In this document: piece by piece, positions 44,638 through 50,867 of the stretch
Position numbering within the stretch: the stretch's first letter is position 1
Layout of the letters: every line of letters begins with the position of its first letter
From: Longimicrobiales bacterium
GTDB taxonomy: Bacteria > Gemmatimonadota > Gemmatimonadetes > Longimicrobiales > Gaopeijiaceae
Length of the DNA stretch: 64,000 nucleotides
Reading direction: 5' to 3'
Assembly (NCBI GenBank): GCA_965202985.1
Contig: CBDBCF010000002.1
Location: 448,001 to 512,000 of the forward strand
The notes under the pieces: model-generated
Told to the model about the DNA's origin: nothing
The model's database searches: none
Seen by the model: the letters and a program-made list of their open reading frames with translations, nothing else
Translations under genes and position numbers: made by a program

Positions 44638-45000
44638 TCACGCTTCCTCCAGCACCATCGACTGGGCGTCTCCCCACAGCTCCTCGAGCCGGTAGAAGTC
44701 CCGGACGGCGGGGTGGAAGACGTGGACCACGTAGTCGATGTAGTCCAGCAGCACCCAGCGGGCGTGGTCCAGTCCCTCCACGTGGCTGGGCCGACTCCCG
44801 GCGGCCTTGGCCGAATCCAGGACGTGATCGGCGATGGCGCGGACCTGGACGTCCGAACGGCCCGTGGCGACGACGAAGAAGTCGGTGGCGGGCGACAGGT
44901 TCCGCAGGTCGAGCACGGTTACGGCGGAAGCCTTGCGGTCCAAGGCGCAGCGGGCGGCCTGCCGCACGTCGGGCGGCATGTCGAAGGGCTCCCGCGTCAA
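44638..45000 (-). CDS. rsfS: Ribosome silencing factor
   Basis: DFFVVATG, WVLLDY and FYRLEELW motifs. Confidence 0.94.
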   Translation of the reverse strand: MTREPFDMPPDVRQAARCALDRKASAVTVLDLRNLSPATDFFVVATGRSDVQVRAIADHVLDSAKAAGSRPSHVEGLDHARWVLLDYIDYVVHVFHPAVRDFYRLEELWGDAQSMVLEEA

Positions 45001-45452
45001 GCCGGCTCGGCCTCCACGACCACCTTGACCTCGACCTCCACGTCGGGTCCCAGCCGGACCGGCACCCGGTACTCGCCGACGGCCTTGATCGGCTCGTCCA
45101 GCACCACGTCCCGACGGTCCACCTCGAAGCCGACGCCGGAGGCCGACGCCTGCTCGGCGATGTCGCGGGTGGTGACGGAGCCGAACAGCTTGCCCTCGTC
45201 GCCGGCCTTGGCGGCGAAGGCCAGCGTCTTGCCTTCCAGCAGGGACGCGCGGCGGTTGGCCTCCAGGTAGTCCCGGCGGGCCTGCTCGGTTCGGCGACGG
45301 CGCTCTTCCTCGATCCGCTTGACGTTGGCCTCGGTCGCCCGGTAGGCGAGGCCCTTGGGGATCAGGTAGTTGCGGGCGTAGCCGGGCTTCACGTTCACCA
45401 CTTGGCCCGGCGACCCCAGGTGCTCGACGGCCTCGCGCAGAATCAGCTTCAT
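44997..45452 (-). CDS. rplI: 50S ribosomal protein bL9
   Basis: [12 protein letters not shown] and GKLFGSV motifs; ATGA-coupled to the upstream ORF. Confidence 0.96.
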
Positions 45453-46243
45453 GCCACGTGGTCCTTGGTGTAGGGAAGGAGCGCCAGGAACCGGGCCCGC
45501 TTCACGGCCGCGCCCAATCGCCTCTGGAACGCCGCCGTCACCCTCGTGGTGCGCTTGGGCAGGATCTTCCCCTGCTCGGTCAAGAACCGCGACAGCGTGG
45601 CCACGTCCTTGTAGTTGAGGAGCACCACGGGCGGTCCCTCGTGGCGCCGGCGCCGGCCGCGGGTGCCCGAGAACTCGGGCGGGCCGGAACGGGGCGGCGG
45701 CGCGGGGCCGGCGGACTCGTCCGCCGATTCGTCTGGGGCCGCTTCGCCTTCCGTGGCGGCGGCTTCTCCCTCGATCGCGGCTGCTTCCGGCGTCTCGGGT
45801 TCGCCGGGCGCGGACGCCGCGTCGCTTTCGTCGGCTGCATGGGCGGCCCCGTCGTCGGTTTCCAGCGGATCGGCTTCGAGCTGGTCGGCGTCGTCCTCCG
45901 AGGCTTCGTCCGCCAGGTGGGCGGCGTGCGGTCGGCTCGCCAGCAGCGACGCGCCCGACGTGGACTGTCCCTTGTTCAGGACGATGAGGTGCCGCAGCAC
46001 TTCCTCGTCCAGCTTCACCAGCCGCTCGAACTCGGGCAGCGCCGTGGGGTCGGCGGAGAACTGGGCGACCGCGTAGTAGGCGGTTTGCGCCTTGGCGATG
46101 GGATACGCCAGCTGGCGGACGCCCCAGTGGTCCAGCGCGGTGACTTCGCCGTCCAGGACCGAGTGGAAGGCGTCCAGCTTGGCGTCCACGGCCTCCCGCT
46201 CCAGGGAGGCGTCCATGACGTAGACGATCTCGTAGGCTTTCAT
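45449..46243 (-). CDS. rpsF: Fused 30S ribosomal proteins bS6-bS18 (rpsF-rpsR)
   Basis: N-terminal YEIVY...[10 protein letters not shown]...EVLRHL (S6); C-terminal [21 protein letters not shown]...[11 protein letters not shown] (S18); no stop between them. Confidence 0.92.
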
Positions 46244-46249
46244 GTTCGT

Positions 46250-46320
46250 TCTCGGGAACTCCCCTGGACCGCAGGTCGAAAAGACGGGCCCCGCCTTCCC
46301 TTGGGCGGAGCGGGCTCGGT
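46250..46320 (-). promoter_or_regulatory. Putative S6:S18 autoregulatory mRNA leader
   Basis: Hairpin GCUCCGCC-CAAGGGAA-GGCGGGGC immediately followed by CCG, upstream of GGGGAG; extended -10 TGcTATCTT at 46331-46339. Confidence 0.55.
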
Positions 46321-47659: not shown

Positions 47660-47713
47660 GGTATCGAACGCGATCGACACGCGCGTTTGTCCGGCAGAAA
47701 AAGGAGCAGCCAA

Positions 47714-50044
47714 ATGAATCCGCGCACCTTCAAGGCCACTCGGATGACCGGCCCTGCGGCGAGCCTCGGATGCTGCTTGGCTCTGTGCCTCGCTCTCGCG
47801 GGCGATGCGGGGGGTCAGTCGAGTCGCGCCGCGCCCTGGTCGCTTCGCACCGTGGACGGTGTCTCTGGCACGCCGGTCGACGGGGTGCGGGTCGTCTTTC
47901 CCGACTACTCGGCCACCAGCTTCTCGGGCGAGGGCGGGATCGTTCCTGGGCACGGCGCGCGCGGGTCCGTCCGCGTCTTGGCCACTCGGCTGGGGTACGC
48001 CGACGTGGACACCGTGCTGGCGGTTCCGCTTGACGGAGACGTAAGGGAACTCGGGCTGCAGCGTGCCGCGGTCGCGCTGCCGTCGCTGACCGTGGCGGCC
48101 GAGCGCGGCATGACCTCGAGGGAACTCCAGCGGATCATGTTCGAGCGCGAGGTGGCCGTCGGGGCGATCGGCGTGACCAAGGCCGAGGTGGAGGCGGTGC
48201 CGCCCATGGGCGAGGCGGACGTGTTCCGCAGCCTGCAGTCGTTCGCGGGCGTTTCCAGCGTGAACGACTTGACGGGCCAACTCTTCGTGCGCGGGGGCGG
48301 CAGCGACCAGGTCGCCGTGTACATGGACGGCGCGCCCGTGTTCGGTCCGTTTCACATGCTTGGCCTGTTCGGCGCCTTCAACCCGGACGTGGTCGAGTCC
48401 ACCGAGTTCTACCGGGGCTCGATTCCGGCGCGTCACGGCGGCGCCCTCTCGGGCGTGTTGTCCTCCACCCAACGGGCCGGAGGCGCGTCGAAGACGAGCG
48501 TGCGGGGCGGTCTCAGCCTGCTCGGGCTCCGCGCCACGGCCGACGGCTCGCTGTCCTCGGGCGACATCCGCTGGATCGCGGGCGCCCGGCGGGCCTCGGT
48601 CGACGTGGCGCCGCTCGGGATGCCGTACTCGTTTCAGGAGGTGAACCTGGGCCTGCAGGCGCACGCTTGGGAGAACCACCGGGTCCGGGGGTCCTTCTTT
48701 GCCTCCACCGACCGATTCGAGTGGGATTCCTGGGGACCCGAGGCCTACGGCTCGGCGGGCTCGGACTGGTCGAACTTGGCGGCGTCCGTTTCCTGGTCCT
48801 GGGTTCGCGGCAACCGAGTCAACAGCGAGGCGACGGCGTACTACAGCCGCTACAGGGGGACTCGGTTCGAAGGCGGCGTGGATGCGTCCGTCGCGGCGCC
48901 GGCTACCACCAGCGGGGTCCAGGTGGCCGGCGTCCGAGCAGGAGTCACGCTGCGCGGAGACCGCTCGGGGATCCGGGCCGGAGTCGCGGTCGAGGGCGGA
49001 CCCGTCGAGGTGCGAGGCGCAGCGGACGGCGGATACGTGAGCGGGGACGTCGTGGGGTCGTACCTGCACGGCTCGGTCTTCGCCGAGGCCGAGCGCTGGA
49101 TCGGTCCGGTGCGCTTGGCCCCGGGCGTTCGGGCGGGCATGGAGCGCCGAAGTTCGCGAACGTTCGTGGAGCCGCGCTTCTCAGTGCGTTGGCAGGCCGG
49201 CAGCTTCGCGGTCAGCGCCAGCTTGGATCGGTCGTATCAGTTCATGTCGGTGCTTCGCGACGCCTACTCGCTGGTTCCCGGCGCTCGCATATGGTTCCTT
49301 CACCAAGCAGAGCAGCCGGAGTCGGCGGCCGACGGCGCGAGCTTGGCGCTGGACACCTGGAAGGGCGAGGATTGGACGGCCACCGTAACGGGCTGGGCGA
49401 GGCGGTTCCACGACGTTCCCCACTGGCGTCCGGCGCGGGTCCGCGACTTCTCGGAGATGCAGTTCCACGACGGAAGCGCCCGCGGCGTGGACGTGACGGT
49501 TCAGAAGCACGCGGGACAGGTTCGAGGCTGGCTGTCCTACCAGTGGGCGGAAGTCCGCTTCACCGACGACGCCGGCACGACGTACTTCCCCCAATGGGAC
49601 CGGCGTCACGAGGGCGAAGGCGTGTTGACGGCCGACGTGAGCGACCGGCTGACCTTGTCGCTTCGCGGCACGGTCGGCTCGGGAGCGCCCTTTTGGTTCC
49701 CGGCTGGACATATCGCTGCCCTTCGCTACGACCCGTCTCAGCCGTCGGGGCTGGGACCCGTCGGCTACCTTGCACAGTCCGACCACGTGACGCTCTGGTC
49801 GGACATGCAGGGCCGGGTCCCGCTGTACTCGCGGTACGACGTGTCGGCCCGCTACGCGATTCGGTGGGGTTCGTGGGAGCTCGTCCCCTTCGCGTCCGTC
49901 GTCAACGCAACGAGTCGCGAGAACATCCTGTACTACATCGATGTCGGCTACATCGACCGGCGCGACGGGGGCTTCGAGCCTCACATCTCGTACCAGACGC
50001 ACATGCCTCTGGTCCCGTTCATCGGGATCGACTTCAGCTTCTGA
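47714..50044 (+). CDS. TonB-dependent outer membrane receptor
   Basis: Signal peptide; plug motifs GEADVFRSLQ, VRGGGSDQ and GAFNPD; C-terminal Phe; AAGGAG RBS. Confidence 0.88.
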   Translation: MNPRTFKATRMTGPAASLGCCLALCLALAGDAGGQSSRAAPWSLRTVDGVSGTPVDGVRVVFPDYSATSFSGEGGIVPGHGARGSVRVLATRLGYADVDTVLAVPLDGDVRELGLQRAAVALPSLTVAAERGMTSRELQRIMFEREVAVGAIGVTKAEVEAVPPMGEADVFRSLQSFAGVSSVNDLTGQLFVRGGGSDQVAVYMDGAPVFGPFHMLGLFGAFNPDVVESTEFYRGSIPARHGGALSGVLSSTQRAGGASKTSVRGGLSLLGLRATADGSLSSGDIRWIAGARRASVDVAPLGMPYSFQEVNLGLQAHAWENHRVRGSFFASTDRFEWDSWGPEAYGSAGSDWSNLAASVSWSWVRGNRVNSEATAYYSRYRGTRFEGGVDASVAAPATTSGVQVAGVRAGVTLRGDRSGIRAGVAVEGGPVEVRGAADGGYVSGDVVGSYLHGSVFAEAERWIGPVRLAPGVRAGMERRSSRTFVEPRFSVRWQAGSFAVSASLDRSYQFMSVLRDAYSLVPGARIWFLHQAEQPESAADGASLALDTWKGEDWTATVTGWARRFHDVPHWRPARVRDFSEMQFHDGSARGVDVTVQKHAGQVRGWLSYQWAEVRFTDDAGTTYFPQWDRRHEGEGVLTADVSDRLTLSLRGTVGSGAPFWFPAGHIAALRYDPSQPSGLGPVGYLAQSDHVTLWSDMQGRVPLYSRYDVSARYAIRWGSWELVPFASVVNATSRENILYYIDVGYIDRRDGGFEPHISYQTHMPLVPFIGIDFSF

Positions 50045-50060
50045 GCAAAGGGAGGCGGCC

Positions 50061-50867
50061 ATGTTCAACTTCAAGAGACTCGTCGCCGTTGTCGCACTTT
50101 CTGCGGTTCTGGGTGCCTGCGGCGACCTCGTGCACCCGGATCCGCCCTCGGACTTGGACGACCGGCTGATCCTGTTCGCGTTCCTGAACCCCGATTCCAC
50201 GCACCAACAGGTGGAGGTCAAGACGGCCGACAACATGTCTCGGGTCGAACTCCGGGAGCTCGCCGTTGCGATCTACAAGGGGACGCCCGGCGAAGGCGTC
50301 GACTGGACGCCGGTAGCGGCCTGGAAAGGCGCTCGCGGGACGGACTTGTGCAGGACCGGCTTCCCCAGGAACGACGTGGCCTGCGTACGTCTGGAGGTGA
50401 CGCTGGAACCGGGCGCCGTCTACAAGGTCGAGGCACGGGCGGAGGGGCGCGCCACGGCCAGCGGCACGACGACGGTGGTCGGCGGCTTCGATGTCGGGGA
50501 AGCCGAGATGACGGGCGGCCACGGGTCGCGGGCGATCCGGGCTTCCTGGACGGAGAGCACGGCGGCGCACCGCTACCTGATGGCCCTTCGGCGCCAGGAC
50601 GACTTCTGCGGCAACTGCATCAGGGCGTGGTACCGGGACCTGCGGAGCACGAGCTACGACGGTCCCGTGCCCGAGTCGGCGGTGGACAGCGCCGGCGTGG
50701 AGCCCATGCTGGACGTGATGGCGTTGGACGAGCACTTCCACTCCTACCTGCACAGCGGCCACGAGGGCAACTTCAGCACGGTGCAGCCGGCGCAGAACGT
50801 GGAGGGCGGGTTCGGCGTCGTGGGGTCGGCCACGTACCGAAGCCGAAAGATCGACTGGAAGCGGTAG
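50061..50867 (+). CDS. Lipoprotein, DUF4249-like receptor partner
   Basis: LGAC lipobox; NVEGGFGVVGS near the C-terminus; GGAGG RBS. Confidence 0.7.
   Translation: MFNFKRLVAVVALSAVLGACGDLVHPDPPSDLDDRLILFAFLNPDSTHQQVEVKTADNMSRVELRELAVAIYKGTPGEGVDWTPVAAWKGARGTDLCRTGFPRNDVACVRLEVTLEPGAVYKVEARAEGRATASGTTTVVGGFDVGEAEMTGGHGSRAIRASWTESTAAHRYLMALRRQDDFCGNCIRAWYRDLRSTSYDGPVPESAVDSAGVEPMLDVMALDEHFHSYLHSGHEGNFSTVQPAQNVEGGFGVVGSATYRSRKIDWKR

Follow-up and report, generated by a model that had tools for sequence, protein, structure and literature searches.

Organization of the rpsF-rpsR locus

The window, i.e., the whole 64,000-nucleotide stretch of Longimicrobiales DNA analysed here, carries on its minus strand a gene in which the coding sequences of the ribosomal proteins bS6 and bS18 are joined. 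The features of the locus are as follows:

46259..46315, minus strand: putative rpsF leader resembling those bound by S6:S18 (conserved in fused relatives; no match in Rfam)
45449..46243, minus strand: rpsF-rpsR fusion ORF encoding bS6, linker and bS18 (264 aa; sole genomic copy of either protein)
45968..46243, minus strand: bS6 domain, aa 1-92 (Pfam PF01250 at aa 4-88, E 5e-23; solved bS6 chains overlay well on the structure predicted for the relative L015)
45932..45967, minus strand: C-terminal extension of S6, aa 93-104 (conserved in alignment A1; sister families, in which S6 is a separate protein, have it too)
45683..45931, minus strand: variable acidic linker rich in Ala, Glu, Asp and Pro, aa 105-187 (predicted to be disordered, with pLDDT <50 in the corresponding part of the L015 model)
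45629..45682, minus strand: family-conserved segment, aa 188-205, with Pro-Pro, Gly, an Arg run and Gly-Pro (invariant columns in alignment A1)
45449..45628, minus strand: bS18 core, aa 206-264, which has no Cys and thus lacks zinc ligands (Pfam PF01084 at aa 209-256, E 1.6e-19)
44997..45452, minus strand: rplI, encoding bL9 (Pfam L9_N and L9_C; the start overlaps the fusion stop as ATGA)
44638..45000, minus strand: rsfS, encoding the ribosome silencing factor, directly downstream of rplI (Pfam RsfS, E 1e-30)

The original prediction had assigned S6 and S18 to one ORF with no Met past residue 10, and both statements are borne out. Translation from 46243 to 45449 gives 264 codons and no stop, Met is found only at residues 1 and 10, and both Pfam domains lie in this single frame. 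The bS6 domain scores 81.4 bits (curated cut-off 27) and covers positions 2-89 of the 90 in the profile; the bS18 domain scores 70.2 bits (cut-off 21) and covers positions 5-52 of 52. Stand-alone rpsF or rpsR genes, for which a check had been proposed, are absent: tblastn revealed no second S6 or S18 across the genome (3.86 Mb, 2 contigs, 92% complete).

Downstream of the fusion, the gene order is rplI, rsfS and then smc. The coupling to rplI that had been pointed out is real in the window, as evidenced by the ATGA overlap, but it is not a general rule. Among 18 loci checked, the two genes are directly coupled in 4, all of the host genus, and are separated by approximately 1 kb in the other 14. 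In one locus (L004, 2391-3203), the gap between rpsF-rpsR and rplI contains a 270-aa hydrophobic ORF, for which searches returned no identification. This intergenic ORF seems to have been lost in the host genus. Elsewhere in the window (47687-50867), a TonB-dependent receptor-like gene is followed by a DUF4249 lipoprotein-like gene, an ordinary pair according to Pfam.

Distribution of the fusion in Gemmatimonadota

A profile built from 24 fused proteins and run on 314 genomes of the host family found matches in 301 of them. In 272 of the 301, there is one full-length match at E <= 2e-79; the 150 of these listed in full are all stop-free and full-length, and the remaining 122 were judged by score. 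Inspection of the other 29 genomes revealed 13 fused genes, 9 genes truncated at a contig end or interrupted by an N gap, 4 frameshifted genes of the fused type (L114, L119, L121 and L122), 2 truly split pairs (G177 and G178) and a single unrelated-looking locus (G318). The four frameshifts are probably assembly errors, or possibly the result of a secondary split. The last locus (L137, G318:C9:462-3755) comes from a 1-Mb genome that is 60% complete; its S6 and S18 are unlike those of Gemmatimonadota and lie approximately 550 bases apart, and the genome may have been misbinned into the host family. In a survey of reading frames, all 44 host-family genomes included featured a single S18 in a frame of at least 225 aa.

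Outside the family, the picture is different. In two sister families, S18 was matched in 85 of 87 genomes, and the open frame around it does not exceed 120 aa in 78 of these. Frames of 153 or 163 aa, found in two genomes, are too short to hold S6, its tail and S18, and in the 5 genomes with longer frames S18 is out of frame with S6. Leaving out the four unpublished genomes among the 85 does not alter this result. In the rest of the phylum, 227 of 252 Gemmatimonadota genomes (four unpublished ones included) gave two or three matches, and the 24 strong single-span matches, among the matches listed (150 of 536), all contain stops. Named records with the same fusion all belong to Gemmatimonadota (6 fused among 80 loci). 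Close relatives are therefore not all split, one of the outcomes that had been set against the original prediction, as the gene is fused across nearly the whole host family. Nor is the fusion unique, being shared by the family and found again in other lineages (see below).

Origin within the host family

The two split genomes are informative about how the genes were joined. In both G177 and G178, the acidic tail of S6 is followed by TAG, one codon and the ATG of S18, which lies in the same frame and features both Pro-Pro and CxxC. In an RpoB tree of 23 genomes, a quick tree with long branches, G178 and 8 outgroup genomes are separated from 14 fused genomes (SH-aLRT 96); G177 and the source genome had no usable RpoB and are not in it. 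In a tree of S6 plus S18, six fused family sequences form a clade of their own (98), to which the split pair does not belong. In-frame genes one stop apart in two early-branching genomes, together with the split genes of the sister families, suggest that the fusion probably arose once, in the ancestor of the family crown, by loss of the stop between adjacent genes.

Two observations on RpoB were made in passing. The source genome, which is 92% complete, gave no rpoB match, the gene probably falling in an unassembled region. In family f2 (L161-L164), RpoB frames measure approximately 1790-1860 aa, compared with 1400-1540 aa in most genomes of f1, the host family, and of f3, and the profile matches them in four pieces, which suggests large insertions.

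Linker, conserved segment and zinc ligands

The anatomy of the fused protein was examined in 67 distinct copies and compared with 18 split Gemmatimonadota S18 proteins. The inter-domain stretch ranges from 34 to 198 residues (median 68), and its net charge is negative in all 67 copies (-5 to -41). The linker of the source genome is among the longer ones, its length thus being a local trait. The ends are conserved (alignment A1): the S6 extension lies on one side, and on the other a Pro-Pro/Gly/Arg segment of 18 residues, which is nearly invariant across the family, precedes S18. An acidic C-terminal tail is already present in the S6 of split relatives, and sequence comparison indicates that the linker is an expansion of this ancestral tail.

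The position of the conserved segment is taken, in split relatives, by the start of S18 and its CxxC zinc knuckle. Zinc-binding and zinc-free types of bS18 are named C+ and C-, respectively. CxxC is found in 16 of the 18 split proteins, whereas none of the 67 fused copies has a Cys in either the linker or the S18 core, so that the N-terminal CxxC and the core Cys and His of the C+ type are not found together in any of them. As 2 of the 18 split proteins also lack CxxC, zinc can be lost without fusion.

The fusion might represent a recurrent evolutionary route to a zinc-free S18, in which the tether to S6 permits metal-free folding and binding, the Pro-Pro/Gly/Arg segment replaces the knuckle, and rpsF-rpsR is a fusion hotspot. 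We regard this as a tentative reading, more doubtful than probable. A Cys pair within 25 residues before the S18 core is absent from all 42 two-domain proteins identified outside the host family (see below), a count weakened by the fact that many of these proteins come from groups whose free S18 also lacks the Cys pair.

A family-wide switch to zinc-free ribosomal proteins was considered and rejected, as Cys-bearing S14, L31 and L33 are retained in the fused family member G012; the same is true of outgroup genomes. The source genome and its congener G001 possess only Cys-poor, zinc-free-type S14, L31 and L33, and the L31, L33 and L28 genes are clustered. The corresponding loci (G000:C1:387411-387572 and C1:497230-498029; L207, L214, L218 and L225) lie outside the window. 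This looks like a genus-level replacement.

Predicted structure of the fused protein

The protein of the relative L015 was modelled with AlphaFold2. With an alignment of 24 sequences, the pTM was 0.48 and the S18 part was poor; with 101 fused sequences, the pTM rose to 0.74 and both domains mostly showed pLDDT >90. The middle of the linker falls below 50 in the latter model, and short strands are predicted at residues 103-104 and 149-151. The beta-alpha-beta-beta-alpha-beta fold of S6 is present, and the best Foldseek match of the S6 part is to solved S6 (probability 1.00, rmsd 1.2 A over 94 columns). The model suggests that S6 and S18 adopt a fixed arrangement, although it probably leans on solved S6:S18 structures. 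None of the best 60 of 135 sequence matches in the PDB is a chain with two matched stretches, i.e., with both domains.

One chain or two

A continuous ORF may still yield separate S6 and S18, either by cleavage in the exposed linker or close to the Arg run, or by internal initiation. The linker is indeed long and predicted to be disordered, and the strongly conserved segment before S18 could serve as a recognition site; the Arg run, on the other hand, resembles the basic N-terminus of the free S18 of relatives. As for a second start, the original prediction had pointed to a GAGGG-N7-GTG motif. The motif is present, with the GTG at 45628-45626 coding for residue 206, the first codon of the bS18 core, and several relatives feature ATG or GTG nine codons before the core. 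The case for an internal start is nevertheless weak. GAGGG is the codon pair of a conserved Glu-Gly, and the candidate start nine codons upstream varies between genomes, encoding Met, Val, His, Ile or Thr. No start is conserved among relatives: ATG, GTG and TTG are all missing from the 30 codons around the S18 core in 35 of the 67 fused copies, and from the entire linker in 13, which makes a required second start unlikely. Taken together, production of two separate chains from this gene seems unlikely.

The putative rpsF leader and translation initiation

The region upstream of the fusion resembles known rpsF leaders. It is organized as a CCC arm at the 5' end, a hairpin, a further short hairpin, CCR and an SD-like GGGGAG. 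A permissive pattern matches all 67 fused copies, and the five base pairs of the hairpin are intact in 51 of the 67 parses; a strict pattern parsed 25 of the 67. RNAalifold, run on a gappy alignment, recovered the leader only in part. In the S6:S18-binding motif described in PMC3854524, a bulged CCR separates the stem that carries the SD from a hairpin, directly before rpsF. That paper and PMC4647458 describe the E. coli S6:S18 pair as binding the rpsF leader and repressing translation, and the latter adds that S6 and S18 heterodimerise before rRNA binding and that it is the pair that represses rpsF. The fused protein probably represses its own mRNA through the leader.

A more active role for the linker had also been proposed, in which the acidic tether could alter initiation or contacts with S1 and S21. 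In this scenario, the linker or the conserved segment would act on the 30S platform, competing with mRNA or holding the anti-SD tail. The site can evolve such roles, since in Bacteroidetes the 16S tail is sequestered by bS6, through an extension at its C-terminus, together with residues of bS18 and bS21 (PMC7797042). The near invariance of the 18-residue segment and the negative charge of every linker speak for this idea. In the source genome, however, SD-like words occur before 32% of 336 putative start ATGs, compared with 10% of 7020 internal ATGs (an approximately threefold enrichment in a crude gene set, with a peak 9-13 nt upstream), the anti-SD is canonical and bS21 is present. Enrichment and a canonical anti-SD speak against SD blindness of the Bacteroidetes kind. 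Moreover, linker length is not conserved and varies almost six-fold, the acidic tail predates the fusion, being present in split relatives, and an independent contig (X7, described below) varies in the linker as a weakly constrained spacer would. The proposed effect on initiation thus finds no support, and we consider it very unlikely. ATP-grasp matches were detected in 4 of 5 genomes and are not assignable to true RimK.

Continuity of the frame in independent assemblies

Contigs obtained from three of four public runs, each from a separate study, span the whole fusion unbroken and without a frameshift or stop in the linker; the fourth run (X8) covers it only in part. The X1 contig is identical in this region and may be the source of the assembly. 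X2 and X7 are sponge metagenomes. The X2 contig differs by 3 substitutions. The X7 contig carries 22, and its linker is longer by one in-frame insertion of 3 nt. Of the X7 substitutions, 19 fall within the ORF, 11 of which are synonymous, and none creates a stop. They comprise 5 non-synonymous and 4 synonymous changes in the linker, to which the one-codon insertion is added, and 3 non-synonymous and 7 synonymous changes in the domains, a pattern that fits a weakly constrained spacer.

Some two-domain proteins in a 50%-identity library do resemble chimeric assemblies, with the linker absent or the domains cut, but the chance that a stop lost or an indel gained in assembly or sequencing joined two genes here is practically nil, and is ruled out for the host family, given the concordant contigs of three studies, the fusion in at least 285 genomes of the family and the presence of both Pfam domains in 120 of 120 homologues among the matches listed from the protein collection.

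Fusions in other bacterial lineages

A search of 1.84 billion proteins revealed that 58 of the 150 best representatives carry S6 and S18. Sixteen of these were left out of a Pfam check (7 from the host family and 9 partial or chimeric-looking); the remaining 42, all from outside the family, passed both Pfam cut-offs. In a tree of 54 sequences (25 of the 42 outside fusions, 6 family fusions and 23 split pairs), fused proteins turn up within Gamma- and Alphaproteobacteria, within other Gemmatimonadota and in additional groups, and at least 8 state changes are required. A single origin of all fusions was rejected (p-AU 1e-157). The organisms behind the outside fusions were placed, from proteins only, by means of the tree, the taxa given in the ESM Atlas and one source name. 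For one outside fusion, 11 further two-domain proteins were found among 81 matches, one of them named as a gammaproteobacterial S18; fusions known from single representatives may be assembly errors. Some of the outside linkers measure only 9-12 residues, and the segment conserved in the host family is absent. In the ESM Atlas, three S6 plus S18 clusters are mostly from Gemmatimonadota (55-162 members) and three are mostly from Pseudomonadota (55-88 members, scores 0.85-0.89), the latter being leads only. Since fusions arose separately in other bacterial groups, the gene is not a new kind of system.

The original prediction knew of no described S6-S18 fusion. In this respect, a search of the main texts of full-text papers found no description of a natural fusion; a mention in a table or a genome report is possible. 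Term searches within PMC7782861, PMC3353972, PMC3578206, PMC11316326 and the opening part of PMC7203096 showed none either. The architecture has, in contrast, been recorded automatically, in cluster names such as [quoted passage not shown] and "Multifunctional fusion protein family protein".

Interpretation

It is likely that the gene encodes a single-chain version of the ordinary S6:S18 heterodimer with normal function. The product would be one uncut polypeptide whose bS6 and bS18 domains fold and associate with each other intramolecularly, the acidic linker being looped out. This intramolecular unit would bind the 16S platform in the usual way, and the same chain would repress its own mRNA via the conserved leader. 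The fusion may have been tolerated since the start of S18 is within reach of the S6 tail, and reversal would have been hard after decay of both the start codon and the zinc knuckle of S18. The original reading of a covalently linked heterodimer is thus supported, at the level of sequence, as the most likely product of the single-ORF gene. The benefit is likely to be modest, consisting of a fixed 1:1 ratio and of zinc-free folding of S18 against its partner. The fusion may be close to neutral.

On present evidence, these data do not change the understanding of translation. They reveal that two core 30S proteins can be one chain across approximately 300 species-level genomes, and that such joining happened repeatedly in bacteria. 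Studies of platform assembly and autoregulation could use the fused proteins as natural single-chain S6-S18 constructs, and the fusion marks the crown of the host family cleanly at the molecular level. There is a consequence for annotation as well: sources label the fused protein as S6 only or as S18 only, and the other gene may then be counted as absent. The main point of interest is whether zinc in S18 was replaced by tethering; it must be set against this idea that two split relatives have also lost the cysteines.

Comparison with known systems

The S6 plus S18 clusters of the ESM Atlas share the architecture, as given in their machine-made names; the fusions from outside the host family differ in lacking the conserved segment and in having separate origins. 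The Bacteroidetes pocket formed by bS6, bS18 and bS21, which sequesters the anti-SD (PMC7797042), has two features in common with the fused protein, namely a lineage-specific C-terminal extension of bS6 and the same site on the 30S platform. In that group, the proteins are separate and most genes are SD-less, whereas SD-like words are enriched here and the extension is predicted to be mostly disordered.

The putative leader shares with the rpsF leader motif (S6S18CBM), as described in PMC3854524 and PMC4647458, a CCR next to the SD stem, a hairpin upstream and a position directly before rpsF. It differs in having an extra short hairpin before CCR, and the repressor would be a single chain.

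The closest counterpart is the canonical bS6:bS18 heterodimer encoded by separate rpsF and rpsR genes (E. coli, T. thermophilus; PDB 1G1X), which joins the central domain of 16S rRNA once S15 has bound and is part of mature 30S subunits. Complete domains, the rpsF-rpsR-rplI order, single copy and the S6 fold are common to both. In contrast to the two separate chains of the canonical pair, there is here a single ORF and no second copy of either gene, S18 has neither a start of its own nor the zinc Cys residues, and the C-terminus of S6 has become internal to the chain.
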